Shown in pieces: positions 6,288 to 40,454 of a DNA stretch of 42,202 nt. This DNA is from a virus (lineage: Duplodnaviria > Caudoviricetes). The notes beneath the pieces were generated by a model that ran no database searches, was not told the origin of the DNA, and saw only the letters and a list, made by a program, of their open reading frames with translations. Numbering within the stretch: the stretch's first letter is position 1; every line of letters starts with the position of its first letter. The DNA lies in IMG/VR virus record IMGVR_UViG_3300023256_000008, positions 1 through 42,202 of that record. One strand, 5' to 3'. A program made the translations under genes and the position numbers.

Positions 6288-6666
6288 TGGAGCGAGCGTA
6301 GATTGTATAATCTCAATGACTCATAATAACCTATCAAATTATATTTAATCGATCATCTATGATGAACTGCGAATATAATGGCGATTTACTGCTTCACTCA
6401 CCTTTCGGCTTCGGGTCTTTCGGGGTTTCAGAATCACCATATCTACTACACTATATCTAATACAAACCCTTTTTCGATATATGTATTTATTCAACTATCA
6501 AAATTTGTAGACGTACATCAACGATTTTAAGGGAATCAAATCCCACTTCAATTTATCTTGCCACCATAGCAAGGGATAGAAGCCGTTTTCTCCCTTTGAT
6601 GTTAGGGTTGATGGTTAGTCATCTTTAGCTTTCACGTCTATTTAATTAATCTAACAAGACACTCGC
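6288..6666 (-). ncRNA. Unidentified 379-nt structured RNA with tRNA-Gly-like acceptor stem and encoded CCA
   Basis: 5' GCGAGTG pairs with 3' CGCTCGC-T-CCA; many internal helices; no long ORF. Confidence 0.6.
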
Positions 6667-6685
6667 ATATCCTGCCTATTAAAAT

Positions 6686-7420
6686 CTAAAAAAATTTAAT
6701 AACCTCTCCAATCTTTTTGTCTCATTTATTTATTTCATTTAATATTAATTTAACTTGGATGTCAATATCTTTATATTTTTCGTTATCAATTCTAATTAAT
6801 AATTTATTTTGATTTATGGCTTCATTATTTTCCACATAATCTCTTAATTGTGATTTTTCGAAATCATGGTTTTTATGTATTTTCCTAAAATGATACGGGC
6901 CATCACTTTCAATCCAAATGTTTTTGTCTTCTGATACAATATCTATATCGAAATTAATCACATCGGTTTTAATTCTACAATGTCTCTTGAAGCCATATTG
7001 CTCTAATTTTTTTGCCAACCCTCTTTCTATTTTTGAAGAAAATCTATCATTATTTTGATTTGATGCAATGAAGTTTTCAAATTTTTCGGGATTTTCTTTG
7101 TAAAGGGTCGCAAGTGTTTCCGAAATCTTCTTTTTTTGTTTATCACTTCACTTTCTGCCATTGGCACATTTTTGACTACAAAATTTTTTATGTTTGTCTT
7201 GACGATTTTCTCTAACGGTTACTTCGAATGGTCCATTACATATCGGACAAATTATTTCTTTTGTAATTTTTTTACCAAATCGGGCATCAACACTATTTAA
7301 AAAATTTTTTCTGCCATCTTCACTATACTTTATTTTTTTATGCTTTCATCTAACATGATTTGCTTTTTGTTGTCACTTTTCAAACTCTTCTCCGCATATT
7401 TCGCATTCATATTTTTTCAT
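6686..7420 (-). CDS. Homing endonuclease-like protein (Zn finger, NUMOD3, Vsr/DUF559-like nuclease); needs TGA=Trp x4
   Basis: 244 aa with in-frame TGA at 7373, 7346, 7148, 6722; CEICG..NHVR[W]KH, GRK[W]SDKQKKKIS, IWIESDGPYH. Confidence 0.75.
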
Positions 7421-7490
7421 TTTTTTCTGCCTCCATATATAAGTATGGAGGCAGAAAGTTATATAGACTATTTTTGCCTATACAAACAAA

Positions 7491-8043
7491 TGGTGGAGGT
7501 GGTGGGACGTTATCTTAACTCTACTTTCTCAAACCATTTATAGTAGAGACGAGACTATCGCATCATCCCATAAGGATGTCTCTTCGCTTAGTCGTTCACG
7601 CTGGCACTACCCTTGCGCCCTGTCGTCCTATGGTAGGACTTCCAAGTCAATCAGAAGAGATTTATTCACTATACCTTTCAATACAGGTCGACAATTATAC
7701 TTATCGAACCCACGTCCACGAAGTCGCCTACTATAATTTTCTTACACACTTAGTTTATTTTACAATTTCAGATGCATCAAAAATAAACAAACCATACATC
7801 GCCCTCTTCGCCAGGTACATTGCGTTTCTACATGTTTTTATCATTGTTAGTAGTCACCAATTATCCTTCATTATGACTTCGATTTGCAGTGTAGAAAGAA
7901 TAGACACCGCACGAAGGGTGGCTTACGCCGCCATTAATTGGCTGTTGCCGTTTAATTTTGTTTTGCAACATAGTTCGTATGCTCGTTGCCATCATAGTGT
8001 GAATCATATAAGGCGGGTCTCCATGTCAAAACCGGTCACCCCC
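7491..8043 (-). ncRNA. ssrA: tmRNA interrupted by a group I intron
   Basis: GGGGGTG/CACCTCC-ACCA acceptor with G3.U70; tag frame GNSQLMAA* at 7923-7949; spliced length 358 nt. Confidence 0.92.
7508..7702 (-). mobile_element. Group I intron (195 nt, no ORF) in the tmRNA T-loop
   Basis: Exons rejoin as GTGGG-TTCGAT^T-CCCAC; 5' exon ends in U, intron ends in G; guide GTCGA pairs with exon TCGAT; P3 TCTCTTC/GAAGAGA; P7 GACTA/TAGTC. Confidence 0.85.
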
Positions 8044-11323: not shown

Positions 11324-11337
11324 CTTATCCCCCTTTA

Positions 11338-11406
11338 TTTTTTTTATCTCTTTCACTCTCTCACTTACATTACTATAATATTCTTATTGATGGTTTTGTC
11401 AAGTTT
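11338..11406 (-). repeat. Repeated ~70-bp promoter/leader module
   Basis: Near-identical copies at 12473-12539, 15283-15343, 28692-28759. Confidence 0.85.
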
Positions 11407-11603
11407 ATTTTAATCTTCTTTCTTCACGCTTGAAATGCAACCATAAATACATTTTATTTATTCTGCCCCTTCTGTTTCTACACTCTTCAATACTAAATTT
11501 CCAACTTCGCCTAATGAGCCAAATGCATCGTCGAAATTACTTGATAAAAATTGTTCTGGACTCATTTCTAATTTGATTGTAACTACTACTTTTTTATTTT
11601 CCA

Positions 11604-12448: not shown

Positions 12449-12709
12449 ATTAATCTCCTCTTTATTTCTTTATTTTTTATCTCTTTCACTCTCTCACTTA
12501 CATTACTATAGTATTCTTATTGGTGGTTTTGTCAAGTTTTTTAATCTGATTGCGAATGGTTTGCAAATGCATTCAAAACTTTACTTATTTACAACATTCA
12601 GGTATTAAAATAAACTAATCTTAAAGTATTGTAAGTTTTTTATTTCATTCCAATCTCCTTTATTTATAATACAACAAATGCTATTCCAACTACTAACAAA
12701 GCAAAATCT

Positions 12710-15265: not shown

Positions 15266-15360
15266 AATTTGTCTCCCTTTTATTTTTTTTATCTCTTTCA
15301 CTTACATTACTATAGTATTCTTATTGGTGGTTTTGTCAAGTTTATTTTTTATTCTTAGGT

Positions 15361-15668: not shown

Positions 15669-15704
15669 TGGAGCGGACGACCAGGTTCGAACTGGCGACC
15701 TCAC
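15669..15704 (-). pseudogene. 3' half of a disrupted tRNA-Gly
   Basis: TGAGGTC-GCCAG-TTCGAAC-CTGGT-CGTCCGC-TCCA. Confidence 0.8.
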
Positions 15705-15706
15705 TT

Positions 15707-16561
15707 CTATTGTGTAAATAGTTTCTTTTCTGTCCAAACTTCAAATAATATATTATTATTTTTACAATAATCTTTCATTATATTTATTTTTTTGTTATTG
15801 TTTCATATATTTAACAATCTTTTTGGCTTAATTTCTATTAATTTTTTTTTATTATTTTTATATATTACTAAAAAATCTGGTATAGTCGAATGGTTATTCT
15901 TGTCATATGGAATGTTAAATGGTTCATATTCGTATGAAAGAATGTTTTTATTATTTTCAATAATTTTAAATGCCTTTAATTCGTATGAACTTTTGTAATA
16001 CCATGTTTTATTATTTTTATTACTATAGAAATAACCGCTTACATAATTTTTATTTAGTGGCGGCTTTCCATACATTGGGTTGTTTTCGCCTTTGTTTTTT
16101 GACCATTTATTTTGTATATCATAGCATAATTTACAACAACATGTTTTTTTGGAATTTGATGTCTTGACTACAAATGGCGCATTACATACTTTACATTGTT
16201 TTATTTTTATTTTAGTAAATTTATAATTTTCTTTTGTTAAATATTTTTTGCCAGTATTTGCTTTTGTTATTTTTTGTATTGTCTCTTTTGAATGTTGTCT
16301 GCTGTTTGCACATTTTCTACTACAAAATTTTTTATATTTTCCTTTGTTAAGTTGGGTTTTAGTAAGTTCAACCATATATTCTTTATTGCATTTTTTACAA
16401 TTAAACTTATAAAATTTTCTTTCTTTTGTATTTTTTTTTGCTATTTTTTCATTTATTTTTTGTTTTGCGGGATTGCTTGGGCAGTTTCTAATATGGGCTC
16501 CAAATTGTTGAAGATTTTTAAATTTAATTTCTTTTTTACATCATTTACATATTCTTTTCAT
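15707..16561 (-). CDS. Homing endonuclease-like protein (Zn ribbons, NUMOD3, TnsA-like nuclease); needs TGA=Trp x2
   Basis: 284 aa; MKRICK[W]CKK; YKSSYE, IPDF, IEIKP then [W]NNNKK...YCKNNNILFEVWTEKKL. Confidence 0.8.
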
Positions 16562-16617
16562 TTTTATTCTCCTTACTACTATAAATATATAGCGGAGAAA
16601 AAAAATCGAAACTTTTT

Positions 16618-16691
16618 TGGAGCGGATTGGGGAAATCGAATCCCCATCTAATGAGTGGCACTCATTTATTCTACCATTAAAATAAACCCGC
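16618..16691 (-). tRNA. tRNA-Gly(GCC), divergent
   Basis: GCGGGTT/AATCCGC-TCCA; loop GTGCCAC. Confidence 0.75.
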
Positions 16692-16724
16692 AACGTTACG
16701 CTCTACCGATTGAGCTACACCCGC
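16690..16724 (-). pseudogene. 5' half of a disrupted tRNA-Gly(GCC)
   Basis: GCGGGTG-TAGCTCAATCGGTAGAGC-G-TAACG-TTGC, breaking inside the anticodon. Confidence 0.8.
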
Positions 16725-28677: not shown

Positions 28678-28817
28678 AACGTCTCCCTTGTTTTTTTTAT
28701 CTCTTTCACTCTCTCACTTACATTACTATAGTATTCTTGTTGGTGGTTTTGTCAAGTTTATTTTTTATGCACTGCCCCAGTGCATGTTTTTTATTCATGC
28801 ACTAAAAATTAAAAAAA

Positions 28818-30010: not shown

Positions 30011-30098
30011 TGGTGCAGATGGTGGGACTTGAACCCACAACTCAAAACCGCTGTTAAACGGGTACTCTCCCAATTTTAGTATTACGAGATACATCTGC
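30011..30098 (-). tRNA. Atypical tRNA, anticodon undetermined
   Basis: Good acceptor, T-arm and CCA; enlarged D-arm; irregular loop TTTAACAG. Confidence 0.55.
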
Positions 30099-30105
30099 AT
30101 ATTTT

Positions 30106-30188: not shown

Positions 30189-30635
30189 TTAATCTATTTG
30201 TTTGAATATTGCAAATTCATGTTTCTTCTTTCCTATTCTTGTAAAGTGAGAAAGCCCTTCTGGTATATCTTTGCCTGATTTATTCCAATTTTTTCTTGCT
30301 TGACTTCTTGATTTAAATATTCCAAAATCTACAAGAATACTGAACACGTCAGTTTCTTTGGGAATCAAAGTCCATTCGTCTGAACCGAAAAGTCTTTCTA
30401 AAAATTTATTGTCAAGATTGTCTGACTCAACGACAAGATTTCTATTAATTCTTTCAGAAAAGAAATTGCCTTTAAATAAATGTGAATCATCAAAAACTTC
30501 ATTTAGTTCAAGAATATGTATATCGTCACCGTATGTTCCTTTAAGAATTGCGGTAACATATTCAATATCAATTCCTCGTTGTTCAAGTTTGAAAATTGTA
30601 TTACCTTTAATAAATCTTACTTTAAACTCTTTAAT
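30189..30635 (-). CDS. Protein with C-terminal S4-like segment; apparent ATT start; not in ORF track
   Basis: 148 open codons after AAGGAG-N7-ATT; ILVDFGIFKSRSQARKN...RIGKKK. Confidence 0.65.
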   Translation of the reverse strand: MKEFKVRFIKGNTIFKLEQRGIDIEYVTAILKGTYGDDIHILELNEVFDDSHLFKGNFFSERINRNLVVESDNLDNKFLERLFGSDEWTLIPKETDVFSILVDFGIFKSRSQARKNWNKSGKDIPEGLSHFTRIGKKKHEFAIFKQID

Positions 30636-30771
30636 TTTATTTCTCCTTATTTTTTCTCACTTACTTTACTATAGTATTCTTTCAGGGAATTTTGTCAAGT
30701 TTATTCTAATAAAAACTGACGTTCTTTGCTTCTTCGTTAAGCTTTAATTCTCTTAGCTACAGATACAGAAA

Positions 30772-33738: not shown

Positions 33739-33862
33739 ATTTGTTGGTAGGAGTCGAACCTACAATTAATTACTGGAGTCGAACCAGATTTGGATATTAT
33801 CCCTATGTCCCACATAGCTCTCCGTATTAGGAAGAGGCGTTTACCACTTTCACCACAACAAA
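33739..33862 (-). ncRNA. tRNA-like RNA with two T-arms, AAT anticodon position, no CCA
   Basis: TTTGTTG/CAACAAA; two GGTTCGACTCC arms; two extra hairpins. Confidence 0.6.
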
Positions 33863-33963: not shown

Positions 33964-34039
33964 TGATGCAAGTGACAGAAATTAAACCTACATTGACGGA
34001 TTAAGAGTCCGTTGTAAAATCAATGTTTGCTACACCTGC
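33964..34039 (-). tRNA. tRNA-Lys(CTT), degenerate
   Basis: ACGGA-CTCTTAA-TCCGT; poor D and T arms, ends TCA. Confidence 0.6.
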
Positions 34040-34047
34040 GTAAAATT

Positions 34048-34125
34048 TGAGGTATGCGATGGAAGTCGAATCCACATCTACAGGGGTCACGATCCTGTGC
34101 TTTATTTATTTAAGTTACGCATACC
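34048..34125 (-). tRNA. tRNA-His(GTG), degenerate
   Basis: G-1/C73, C33, ends TCA. Confidence 0.65.
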
Positions 34126-34373
34126 ATATAAGATTCGTTTCTTCTGCCATTACATTCTACTGACAGAGCATTAGAATCATTTTAATTTGCAACAGTAAGT
34201 ACAATATATTGTACTTACAAGAGAAAGTTATGTTGAAATTTATCGCTTTCTTTAACATAACTATTGTCTCATGTTGAAGAAATACGTTTTTTTTAACATA
34301 AAAATTTGAACTATTGGTCAGCATTACCTGTTTCTATTTAGTACCACGTAGAGGTTGTTCAATTTACTAAATG

Positions 34374-34448
34374 TAGCCATCCTGAGACTCGAACTCAGAC
34401 TGTACAGCGTTTGAAACTGCTTCCTCTTCCAGATTGGGATAGATGGCC
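34374..34448 (-). tRNA. tRNA-Leu(CAA) with short variable loop
   Basis: GCAGT-TTCAAAC-GCTGT. Confidence 0.7.
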
Positions 34449-34681: not shown

Positions 34682-34760
34682 GATTTAAGTAGTAAAAGTG
34701 GAATCGAACCACCATTTGTCTAAAAGGCCTTGCTCAACCGCATCCTATACTAATTAAATC
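34682..34760 (-). ncRNA. Small T-arm-containing RNA
   Basis: GATTTAA/TTAAATC closing stem, GTGG-TTCGATT-CCAC. Confidence 0.4.
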
Positions 34761-35937: not shown

Positions 35938-36068
35938 CAGGATAATATTTTTTATTCCAACGTGTCTACCAATTTCACCATTACTAACTATCAATTAGTA
36001 AGTAGGACTCGAACCTACACGACATTACATCATCAGATTTTAATTTTTGGTTTGCTGTTATTATCCTT
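35938..36068 (-). ncRNA. YrlA-like RNA (circularly permuted tRNA on a CAGCAAA stem)
   Basis: AGGATAATA/TATTATCCT; order T-arm, loop-closed acceptor TTACTAA/TTAGTAA, D-arm. Confidence 0.65.
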
Positions 36069-36794: not shown

Positions 36795-36874
36795 TGGTGG
36801 AGACGGAGGGTATCGAACCCTCGAACTAAACGTTCCATTTGTTGGTTTACGTTCAGTTTCACCTTTTCGCCCCC
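36795..36874 (-). ncRNA. 80-nt RNA resembling the tmRNA tRNA-like domain
   Basis: GGGGGCG/CGTCTCC-ACCA with G3.U70, no D-stem, long helix in place of the anticodon arm, canonical T-arm. Confidence 0.65.
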
Positions 36875-36953
36875 TGGGAACGGATTGCGGAGTTGAACCA
36901 CATTTAATACTGGCTTATGAAACCTGCCGAGATACCGACCTCGTCCATCCGTG
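36875..36953 (-). tRNA. tRNA(CAT), atypical, 1:72 mismatch
   Basis: Loop TTCATAA, CCA. Confidence 0.65.
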
Positions 36954-36969
36954 TCGTAATAATAATAAA

Positions 36970-37280: not shown

Positions 37281-37324
37281 TGGTACCGAAGGGCAGACTC
37301 GAACTGCCAACCTTTAGATTATGA
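37281..37324 (-). pseudogene. 3' half of a disrupted tRNA(CAT)
   Basis: TCATAA-TCTAA-AGGTT-GGCAG-TTCGAGT-CTGCC-CTTCGGT-ACCA. Confidence 0.8.
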
Positions 37325-38107
37325 CTTCATAATTATTAATTCGCACTCATAACCATTATTCTTATACATTTTAAATTTATCATCCATATTTTGTTTATTA
37401 TAAGTATAATTACATTTTATTTCTACTATTTTATTTTCCAAAGGTAAGTAAAAATCTGGTATTGCTATACTATATCTTTTTTTTTGAGTATCATAATATA
37501 TAAGCCTTTTTGATTCCATTTCATATGGAATTTTTTGTTTGTCTAAATTTTTGGCATATCTTAGTTCGTAACTGCTTCTGTAAAATACTTGTTTTCCGTG
37601 CCAAGTTGTATGCCATCCATGTTTGTACTTGTTTTCACAAGGCATATTACGTCTATTATTATGCAAACAAATTAATTGAGCCTTAGATTTTCTTCTCATA
37701 GAAATTTTATGTTTATTAAAGAAATTACGTAACGATAATTCATGTATATTAAATTTTTCTTGTATTTCCAATGATGATAGTTGTAAGTTATTATATAAAT
37801 ATCATAATTTTTGTAATGCTTCGTGCCCTGCCTCTTTTAATGATAGGTCGGTATAATTTATATCTAACCTGTCAAATAATAGTTTATTTTGTATATATTT
37901 ATGACATTCAAAGCAATATTTTTTCTTACTTTTGGGCGTTTTATTATTACAACTAATACAATAAGTTTGTGTATTTTTTTGTAATGAATTGCTTATTTTT
38001 TCTTTTGTTTTTTGAGAATGATTTCGAGAATTGGCGCAACTTCTGCCACAAAACCTTCCAGAACCATAATTGCCGTCATGTTCTTTATTACAATTTTCAC
38101 ATTTCAT
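37319..38107 (-). CDS. Homing endonuclease-like protein (Zn ribbons, NUMOD3, TnsA-like nuclease); needs TGA=Trp x1
   Basis: Tracked ORFs 37802-38107 and 37319-37771 are in frame across a single TGA; YRSSYE, IPDF, VEIK; 262 aa. Confidence 0.8.
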
Positions 38108-38180
38108 AATTGTTCTCCTATATTAATAAGTATAGTCGAACCTAAAAATTTAGTATATATTTTTTTATATACCAAAAAAA

Positions 38181-38257
38181 TGGTAGCGATAACTGGACTT
38201 GAACCAGTAACCTCACAAGATATGAGCTTGGAATTCTACCAATTGAACTATATCGCC
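38181..38257 (-). tRNA. tRNA(CAT), probably Met
   Basis: GGCGATA/TATCGCT-ACCA, loop CTCATAT. Confidence 0.85.
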
Positions 38258-38270
38258 ATAATTGTATTAT

Positions 38271-38294
38271 GCCCACCAGTTGTGCTACTTCGGT
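38271..38294 (-). pseudogene. 5' fragment of the disrupted tRNA(CAT)
   Basis: ACCGAAG-TA-GCACAACTGGT; ACCGAAG is the exact complement of CTTCGGT in the 3' half. Confidence 0.7.
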
Positions 38295-38606: not shown

Positions 38607-38924
38607 TTTGATATTCCTTTTTAATTTTTTTTGAAACTCTTTTTGTCTCTTACATTAATATATATTGAGACAATAAAGAAAACTCTATTTTTTTTGTTTT
38701 TTTTTAAAATTTGTTAACTTAGGTCTAACTCTTTTGTTTCATTCTCTAAAAATCCTGCCTTTCGGAACTATCCTTACGACTGCTTCTCGGGACTTACGCC
38801 GTAGGACATTTTCAGGGCTAATGAGAAATAAAACCATATTAACATTTCACTCTATATTCTTTTAAGTGAGCTGACACTTTAGCCATTTAACCCTATTGAG
38901 GCAGATGTGGGACTCACTTGCTCT

Positions 38925-38988
38925 TTCACTTTATATAGACAACATAATCTATTAGGATAAATTGTCAAATCTTTTTTTACTTTTTTTT
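38925..38988 (-). promoter_or_regulatory. Promoter duplicated at about 40247-40308
   Basis: TTGACA-N16-TATGTT; near-identical ~60-bp copies, each ahead of a non-coding structured region. Confidence 0.65.
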
Positions 38989-38998
38989 CTTGATGAAT

Positions 38999-39130
38999 GA
39001 AAAAGTAAGGCTGGGTCTGCGTTTGTATTCCCAGCTTTTTGTTATTTGGTTTTATGTTTGGTCTTTTATCCGGACTGTACGGCCGGAAGACGTTCGGATC
39101 CAAAAATAACCGCAGGTCGCTTACTTTTTC
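38999..39130 (-). ncRNA. Rod-shaped ncRNA candidate, possibly 6S-like
   Basis: GAAAAAGTAAG/CTTACTTTTTC closing stem, CTGCG/CGCAG, apical TCCGG/CCGGA. Confidence 0.4.
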
Positions 39131-39503
39131 ACTCTATAATTTGTTTGGTAAATATAATATTTCAGCATTAATATTCCTGCAATTACCGTGCCCTTTTCTC
39201 ACATACACGAGCAAGTCATATAATTAAATACAAGTTATTCTGTATGCTGTTTCTTTACACTAATATTCCCCAATTTTTATTTGAAAGGTGGGGTTAAATC
39301 AGCCTTAGTCCATACCCAGGAGCCTGTATCGCAATTTATATAATTATTTCGTCAATCTGTTTTTGCTCCGGAACCATAGTCAGCAGATAAACCTTAGGTC
39401 TCATTCCCACGCTCAATACGTATCAAACGTATATAACAAAATAACTAATGTGCGGTCATTGGCTTTAATCCAAATGGCGCTTTCAACCGTCTCTCAAACA
39501 TTA

Positions 39504-39644
39504 AATAGAATAGAATAAATTGCCAGTCGTTCAACATAAATGAGACCTTCAGCATCCAACAGCAGTCTCTTGTTTTTGGTTGCCCTGTCTTACGGGGGTT
39601 GGATTTAACAATGCTTTCACACGTTTGATTTATTCTATTCTATT
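39504..39644 (-). ncRNA. Structured RNA candidate closed by a 17-bp inverted repeat
   Basis: aatagaatagaataaat/atttattctattctatt; internal ATCCAAC/GTTGGAT and GAGAC/GTCTC. Confidence 0.45.
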
Positions 39645-39650
39645 AATTAA

Positions 39651-39826
39651 ATAAATGGTAGGATTCGATTCCTACATTCTATGGCCACTTGAATCATAAA
39701 AAAACGCTTTACCTCTTTATTAAGCTACCAACCAATTAAGTTTGGGGTTAAATTAGGAATTCAACCTAATCGGACTCGAACCGCCACTATATTTTTTTAT
39801 GTGCGTCTCTATTGCGCCACATCTAT
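39651..39826 (-). ncRNA. Nested double tRNA-like RNA
   Basis: Outer acceptor, D-arm and T-arm; long anticodon helix encloses a second T-arm and D-arm. Confidence 0.55.
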
Positions 39827-39984
39827 TCTATTAAAAAATGATACAAGGAACATAAGGTTCGAACTCATAAATCGTCTTTGCCTTTGACAGTTAAGTATCA
39901 TTTTTTCTCTTTCACTCTATATAACTATAATATTCTTTTAGGTAATCTTGTCAATTCTTTTTTCGTTTTTCTTTTAATAACATA

Positions 39985-40240
39985 AGAAATTGAGGTGTGC
40001 TTTCACGCTAAAACTCGGCTACCGTCTTTTCTAATTAGTGTAATCACTTAAACATACGGTAAGTTGCTCTCCGCTTCCATATGATACTTACTAAGACAGT
40101 ACTTTCGAAATACTTCCACCAGAGATTTATGAGAGACAGGTTTAAATAATGAGATTGTAAATCATCCCCGTTCTGGTATGTTATCTTTCCAAATACTCTT
40201 TAAATGATGGCTGCCTCTAAGCCTACATTCCACAACTTCT
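39985..40240 (-). ncRNA. RNA mimicking the 23S rRNA L11-binding domain (H43-H44) with a large insertion
   Basis: ATGTAGGCTTAGAGGCAGCCATCATTTAAAGA...AGCGTGAAAGCACAC, closed by AGAAGTTG/CAATTTCT. Confidence 0.75.
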
Positions 40241-40454
40241 TTTTTTTTCACTCTATATAGACAACATAATCTATTAGGATAAATTGTCAAATCTTTTTTT
40301 ACTTTTTTCCTTATTGTTATTTTTTATCTTATTTGACAATTCAAATTGTCTTATTGTCATTTTACTTAATCGTTGTGTGAATATCGCATTCAACCAATTT
40401 CGATTTTAAATCTATAACAGAACCTCTTGCCAAATATAGTAAAGTTTATGCACT

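Follow-up and report, generated by a model that had tools for sequence, protein, structure and literature searches.

The 42,202-base phage record IMGVR_UViG_3300023256_000008, analyzed over its whole length and here called the window, carries a 986-bp cassette (15704..16689, minus strand) inside the anticodon arm of a resident tRNA-Gly(GCC) gene. We read this cassette, with a probability of about 0.75, as a homing unit: it would cut the anticodon arm of intact tRNA-Gly(GCC) genes and bring along a spare isoacceptor predicted to resist cutting, with no intron involved.

Organization of the tRNA-Gly(GCC) cassette

All parts lie on the minus strand. In order of transcription they are the 5′ half of the resident gene (tRNA positions 1–35; 16690..16724); a complete replacement tRNA-Gly(GCC) of 74 nt (16618..16691), called by ARAGORN and scoring 55.8 bits in Rfam; a 56-nt spacer (16562..16617), in which a Shine-Dalgarno-like AAGGAG is seen at 16574–16569; an ORF for a predicted endonuclease of 284 aa, P0001 (15707..16561), recognized under genetic code 4 and by Pfam, profile and structure prediction; three bases; and the 3′ half of the resident gene (positions 42–76; 15669..15703). 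The cassette itself consists of the tRNA, the spacer and the ORF. Both halves are dead remnants, identical in sequence to the corresponding parts of an intact gene on the metagenomic contig L148. The first two bases of the replacement tRNA double as G34 and C35 of the old gene (old G34-C35 equals new G1-C2), and this 2-nt microhomology leaves the left edge of the cassette ambiguous. The acceptor strands of the two halves pair at seven of seven positions, five by Watson-Crick and two by G-U pairs.

A sequence-only reading had described these four gene parts in this order, and ARAGORN, Rfam, Pfam and the L148 alignment recovered all of them, including the diverged but complete tRNA sharing the junction GC (16691–16618), the endonuclease gene with its TnsA-like and NUMOD3 domains and the pairing of the acceptor strands. 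One coordinate was corrected: the 3′ half, placed by that reading at 15669–15704, is present but starts at 15703 on the minus strand according to L148. The two halves lack six nucleotides (positions 36–41, from the last anticodon base to the middle of the stem), so they do not make up a whole gene. A pairing script run over the 42-kb window found the Gly halves as the sole pair of this kind; it missed the tRNA(CAT) pair described below.

The comparison with L148 revealed neither terminal inverted repeats nor a target duplication at the cassette, which encodes no transposase or integrase. A 12-nt direct repeat links the 3′ ends of the replacement tRNA and of the old half. Sigma-70 promoters near the cassette were not in excess (10 found, 11.8 expected). 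An assembly artefact was ruled out: one contig spans 15319–17100 without differences in four of four high-share runs, and L127, a filled locus from a separate assembly, is 99.8% identical across 6,024 bp. A chance origin of the split layout was ruled out by the intact gene that L148 carries between the same flanks.

Filled and empty alleles

A scan of metagenomes with the 3′ end of the old gene returned 41 loci: one filled (L127), one empty (L148) and 39 others, which have no long match to the window and in no case the anticodon arm of the old gene. L148, a single contig of 1,279 bp and the sole example of the empty allele, holds an unbroken 76-nt tRNA-Gly(GCC), with 145/145 bases upstream (100%) and 434/436 bases downstream (99.5%) identical to the window. 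The sequence-only reading had named, as its check, a related genome with an intact gene at this locus, and L148 is such a relative and nearly identical. In the window, the 986-bp cassette takes the place of six nucleotides, positions 36–41 of the tRNA. Near-identical phages therefore differ in having the filled or the empty allele, and the old gene is lost on filling. The claim of a mobile unit is supported by the filled/empty pair and by the recurrence reported below, and destruction of the old gene is shown by the loss of positions 36–41 of the L148 gene. Like a homing endonuclease gene, the cassette is an optional element, present in the window and L127 and absent from the one empty contig. 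That the halves and flanks are still almost perfect suggests a recent insertion.

The empty joint was seen in none of eight examined runs (24 are listed), data at contig level being incapable of showing absence. Scans of viral contigs with P0001 and with a pattern of the 5′ half found nothing, and a pattern of the 3′ half gave three matches, all of them unrelated intact tRNAs. A promoter-like element is repeated in the window (15270–15350, 28695–28768, 11330–11411, 12475–12542 and 30635–30705). L148 departs from the window to different genes exactly at this repeat, which suggests that modules may be shuffled at such elements.

The predicted nuclease

P0001 is composed, from its N terminus, of Cys-rich zinc-binding modules, which have weak matches to zinc-finger profiles, a NUMOD3 motif (Pfam, residues 88–106, E 6.9e-7) and a TnsA-like PD-(D/E)XK domain (Pfam Tn7_TnsA-like_N, residues 204–278, E 1.5e-12), both Pfam matches lying above cut-off. 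The predicted catalytic residues E194, D229 and E243 are invariant, and K245 is nearly so, in an alignment of 23 relatives out of 56 matches. Profile searches against PDB matched TnsA (1f1z, E 3.5e-4), TnsA-domain fusions (E 1e-7) and T7 endonuclease I. In the AlphaFold model (mean pLDDT 70.9, pTM 0.49), the C-terminal alpha/beta domain is predicted with confidence and the linkers are of low confidence. Homing enzymes typically join recognition modules to a nuclease domain, and P0001 has DNA-recognition modules together with conserved catalytic residues. From this composition we infer that P0001 is a nuclease.

The best PHROG match of P0001 is a head-completion nuclease, and a search of cultured phages returned matches of this type alone. 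A head-completion nuclease like T4 gp4 would be a short TnsA-like protein, encoded in the virion gene block and without a long DNA-binding extension. This identity was rejected for P0001: PHROG 218 covers residues 182–248 only, the gene is optional and lies within a tRNA, and the protein has a long extension. In PMC7824862 the head-completion nuclease is described as virion-associated. Among distant viral relatives of P0001, none of 44 has a tRNA within 2.5 kb; linkage to tRNAs is therefore not a general property of the TnsA-like family.

Relatives adjoining tRNA-Gly(GCC)

Closer relatives do adjoin the same isoacceptor. Locus L160 encodes P0006, 46% identical to P0001 and in the same nuclease-domain clade (SH-aLRT 91), and its stop codon falls within a tRNA-Gly(GCC). 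Loci L166 and L167 encode one protein, which starts 58 nt after a tRNA-Gly(GCC) and is 40% identical to P0006 and 29% to P0001; its nuclease domain falls outside the P0001 clade. These placements come from a quick tree of few columns, with 69 of 76 domains kept after removal of duplicates and short rows. Comparable tRNA clusters of phages contain 244 distinct tRNAs, of which 3 are GCC, and two Gly-GCC neighbors would be expected by chance about 6 times in 10,000, by a rough sum allowing two slots per locus. Loop position 38 is changed in all three partner tRNAs; the other 12 distinct Gly-GCC tRNAs at the loci examined all keep the loop TTGCCAA, but they form a biased set in which five came from searches with the 3′ end of the old gene and some are near-duplicates.

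A motif search gave four matches, L160 being the only relative with a tRNA; the weak relatives L168–L170 have no tRNA beside them; and a genome scan with P0006 gave two matches, both to the N-terminal part only. tRNA halves were not found in L160 or L166. From the three loci, the anticodon arm of tRNA-Gly(GCC) is the predicted target of P0001. Because the relatives mostly adjoin an intact diverged tRNA without halves, the halves are probably transient traces left by a recent invasion and no stable part of the element.

The replacement tRNA

The replacement tRNA-Gly(GCC) has a 4-nt variable loop, an altered anticodon loop and an encoded CCA, and folds at −24.7 kcal/mol (z −2.67). It is identical to the old gene at 44/76 positions and to the phage's own tRNA-Gly(TCC) at 52/75; in the anticodon arm, 7 of 17 positions match the old gene and 10 differ. 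In the precursor, its own acceptor stem forms with a probability of about 0.77; for pairing between the replacement and the old 5′ half the value is 0.2. What the cassette carries is a well-formed tRNA whose anticodon equals that of the old gene and whose anticodon loop departs from the conserved form. The old site is absent from the filled window, where its best match is 18/29, and the replacement likely resists cutting by P0001. It is the only Gly-GCC tRNA within the window; among 6,140 codons of long ORFs on the minus strand, GGT occurs 88 times and GGC 78 times. The replacement may compensate for the destroyed gene, although the phage tRNA may also be dispensable.

Recurrence in other tRNA genes

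A second cassette lies at 37281–38294 of the window, also on the minus strand. It contains a 5′ piece of an older tRNA(CAT) (38271..38294, inner end approximate), the piece that the script missed, recognized by eye from acceptor pairing at seven of seven positions; a complete tRNA-Met(CAT) called by ARAGORN (38181..38257); the gene of P0002, a 262-aa PD-(D/E)XK-type nuclease (37319..38107), with a stop codon that runs into the anticodon loop of the older tRNA; and the 3′ half of this older tRNA(CAT), which reaches from its anticodon to CCA (37281..37323; 19.3 bits with a 3′-half profile). P0002 and P0001 are only distantly related. A scan for an empty tRNA-Met allele found nothing.

In the P0002 family, tRNAs occur within 1.5 kb in 39 of 39 strong viral loci and in 0 of 30 weak ones. 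The split-and-replaced layout was recognized in L060 alone among the 39: at 1136–2442 this locus holds a 5′ piece, a whole tRNA with the anticodon GAA (44.1 bits, missed by ARAGORN), an ORF and a 3′ half with matching acceptor, the tRNA being tRNA-Phe. Several further tRNAs of the L060 locus are interrupted at the anticodon. In Lak-B phages a nuclease of the P0002 family is present in five of nine genomes, exactly at tRNA-Phe(GAA), which is interrupted in these five. Lak-B2, the one that was examined among the four empty genomes, has an intact tRNA-Phe(GAA) (L172, 480–566); Lak-B1 (L164, 480–1572) has the same 5′ half as far as the anticodon, where an insert of about 85 nt begins, followed by a 3′ half unlike that of Lak-B2 and by the nuclease. 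The flanks of the two are 99.8% and 100% identical. Judged by the pattern that the Met, L060 and Lak-B1/Lak-B2 loci share, nucleases of this kind are again and again accompanied by an altered copy of the tRNA whose anticodon marks the allele boundary, the copy being a whole second gene or an interrupted one depending on the locus.

At many of the loci L048–L086 the stop codon of the nuclease is at most 20 nt away from the tRNA gene that follows, or lies within it. Processing of the tRNA would therefore sever the mRNA of the nuclease, which has also been proposed for SegB.

Genomic setting and genetic code

ARAGORN called 34 tRNAs in the window, all on the minus strand. P0001 is present on contigs of up to 138 kb, and the phage is therefore a large one. 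All 24 listed metagenome runs bearing the region are from salt lakes. Judging from its reading frames the phage reads TGA as Trp, because several ORFs of the window extend through TGA and the two in-frame TGA codons of P0001 align with Trp in the relatives P0005 and P0006 and with Phe/Tyr in P0003 and P0004, the closest relatives being P0003–P0005. Code 4 extends the cassette ORF to its 284 aa, gene calling with table 11 shortens it to 190 aa, and code 15 brings no extension.

Other features of the window are of separate interest. The sequence at 34373–34448 (minus strand) was called as tRNA-Leu(CAA), yet its variable loop is short and the run TTTCAAA stands at its anticodon, and it could be the UGA-reading tRNA of a phage in which TGA encodes Trp. 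Further tRNA-like or degenerate tRNA sequences on the same strand were left uncalled by ARAGORN (30011–30100, 36795–36960, 33740–33830, 34699–34760 and 36000–36060), and two more at 33967–34124 (minus strand) were detected by Rfam alone. About 1.6 kb at 38700–40300 (minus strand), without long ORFs, resembles structured non-coding RNA; nothing there matched Rfam at gathering scores.

A tmRNA gene (7490–8036, minus strand), missed by ARAGORN, has an Rfam match that ends in the T-loop at 7701, about 190 nt before the 3′ end. By eye, this stretch of about 190 nt after 7701 looks like a group I intron; an Rfam intron match was not found in it. Directly after the tmRNA, at 6686–7420 (minus strand), lies a third zinc-finger nuclease-like ORF (244 aa under code 4), with weak matches to an HNH-family PHROG and a restriction-endonuclease Pfam family. 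This ORF is possibly the homing partner of the tmRNA insert. Structured non-coding DNA is seen beyond it, at about 6340–6680.

Alternative explanations

The cassette might have been exchanged passively, as a module joined by recombination at microhomology and spread by drift or because its altered anticodon loop escapes a host anticodon nuclease, its ORF taking no part in cutting the site. The modular downstream region, where L148 diverges at the promoter-like repeat, agrees with such an exchange, and one study reportedly proposed that phage tRNAs change their anticodon loops to evade host defences. A passive swap leaves unexplained why the same isoacceptor was landed upon three times (Gly, Met and Phe) and why two more relatives adjoin Gly-GCC against a background of 3/244, and we regard it as unlikely. 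The nuclease could instead serve mainly as a weapon that cuts the conserved tRNA-Gly(GCC) genes of the host or of rival phages, the recoded tRNA protecting and supplying its carrier and homing being a side effect. Conservation of the anticodon loop in the 12 other Gly-GCC tRNAs, high-GC bacterial-type ones included, would suit such a weapon, and for SegB a potential toxicity to the host is mentioned in PMC2330249. Insertion at the presumed target and the filled/empty polymorphism are nevertheless marks of homing, which make this reading improbable as the main account; weapon-plus-immunity and homing are compatible and not exclusive of each other. We consider it highly improbable that L148 is an assembly chimera formed through an identical tRNA of another organism. 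It is one short contig that was not seen in eight runs, and a further tRNA-Gly whose anticodon arm is similar occurs in run X23; on the other hand the agreement of L148 with the phage extends on either side across the 35-nt half, L148 has two substitutions of its own and different distal genes, and the anticodon arm of the old gene was absent from the other 39 loci. Even if L148 were a chimera, the split gene and the cassette would stand.

Two further accounts have hardly any probability left. The insert ends in G and is located in the anticodon loop, as might be expected of an intron, whether group I or spliced by proteins, or of halves trans-spliced into a working tRNA, and Lak tRNA "introns" holding a tRNA are reported in PMC6784885. 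Ligation of the halves would, however, give a product without an anticodon, positions 36–41 being deleted. The tRNA and the ORF fill the cassette and leave no room for a ribozyme; Rfam finds the tRNA only, with no intron match at E values up to 5. The claim that the unit is intron-less was upheld on these grounds, and a group I or other tRNA intron is largely refuted: the exons do not rejoin to a full gene and a ribozyme core is absent. A Tn7-like transposon is brought to mind by the TnsA-like domain, and an integrase by the site, tRNA genes being common places of integration. Neither fits a 6-nt deletion in place of a target duplication, cassette ends without terminal inverted repeats, the lack of any transposase or integrase gene in the cassette and a target not rebuilt from a carried 3′ piece. 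The absence of TnsB/TnsC, terminal inverted repeats and target duplication led to rejection of the transposon; that of an integrase, a duplicated att core and target rebuilding led to rejection of a tRNA-targeting integrative element.

Comparison with known systems

The homing unit that we prefer has partial counterparts. I-Ssp6803I, a PD-(D/E)XK enzyme, is an intron-encoded homing endonuclease in a tRNA gene. It shares with the Gly cassette a PD-(D/E)XK gene that sits at the tRNA anticodon loop and destroys its own site, and differs in that self-splicing restores function, whereas the Gly cassette cannot splice and carries a second tRNA gene. The gene mobE of Aeh1 is a nuclease gene that splits a host gene without an intron, and so-called fractured genes are said to consist of split inteins flanking a free-standing endonuclease. 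In these cases the pieces stay functional; at the Gly cassette the halves are dead and a new gene takes their place. An engineered home-and-rescue gene drive both cuts an allele and brings, within one cassette, a recoded copy of it; the Gly cassette would differ as a natural, protein-guided unit in a phage.

T4 SegB, as set out in PMC2330249, is a free-standing nuclease of a tRNA cluster that cuts tRNA genes and homes together with neighboring ones. The resemblance extends to NUMOD3, to the tRNA region and to absence from close relatives. According to the same source (PMC2330249), SegB differs in being a GIY-YIG enzyme that recognizes the T-loop motif common to many tRNAs and cuts their 3′ ends; it sits between intact genes, with no split gene, and T4's own sites stay cleavable. 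The Gly cassette also lies outside any intron or intein. In PMC2988022, intronless homing of the Seg/Mob kind proceeds by double-strand-break repair with co-conversion of adjoining DNA, and by definition its cleavage sites are separated from the insertion site of the gene by hundreds to thousands of bp. Seg/Mob genes are inserted between genes and far from where they cut; the Gly cassette sits in its presumed target, inside a tRNA gene, with a whole replacement gene, and its Pfam domains are TnsA-like and NUMOD3 only, with no GIY-YIG or HNH. The tRNA "introns" of Lak megaphages resemble it in a tRNA nested in a tRNA gene and in filled and empty alleles among phages: one of them holds a possible tRNA. 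They were read as introns, and the word endonuclease is absent from the main text of that report (PMC6784885). PD-(D/E)XK homing genes in phage are mentioned in PMC10448857. Passages of PMC7162821, PMC12619734, PMC8421152 and PMC7824862 contain nothing on an arrangement of this kind. In a literature search covering few subscription papers and no supplements, we found no description of a nuclease cassette that splits a tRNA and brings a replacement with the same anticodon.

Proposed mechanism and implications

We propose, as the likely course of events, that the enzyme would cut intact tRNA-Gly(GCC) genes of a co-infecting phage in the DNA of the anticodon arm. The donor of the first arrival may have resembled L160, with the nuclease beside a resistant isoacceptor; repair of the break from a non-homologous donor phage could have used the 2-nt microhomology at the left, with 6–8 nt lost. 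The current spread would be ordinary double-strand-break homing during co-infections, in which halves and flanks would act as the homology arms. The spare tRNA would make the insertion neutral, as self-splicing does for intron-borne endonucleases. The halves would erode later, and the 12-nt direct repeat might offer a route for loss of the ORF and the old half.

Homing endonucleases normally spare the gene that they invade, by means of an intron, an intein or a position outside the gene. The Gly cassette would represent a third route, in which the gene is destroyed and a recoded spare is brought along, and the TnsA-like family would join the candidate homing enzymes. The filled/empty pair supplies exact substrates, the 76-nt old gene and the 74-nt new gene, and homing with rescue gives a testable alternative explanation for unusual anticodon loops in phage tRNAs. 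Annotators should be aware that tRNA finders report the replacement alone and not the broken gene, and that table-11 calling shortens the nuclease ORF.

We tentatively suggest, as a generalization that is possible and somewhat less than an even bet, that large phages carry a family of modular PD-(D/E)XK nucleases acting as natural home-and-rescue drives, each specialized on one tRNA isoacceptor, whose gene it would cut in the anticodon arm and of which it would bring a recoded copy. If this is true, such drives would be, beside host anticodon nucleases, a main force behind the odd anticodon loops, the turnover of tRNAs and the "tRNA inside a tRNA" introns of phage tRNA clusters.
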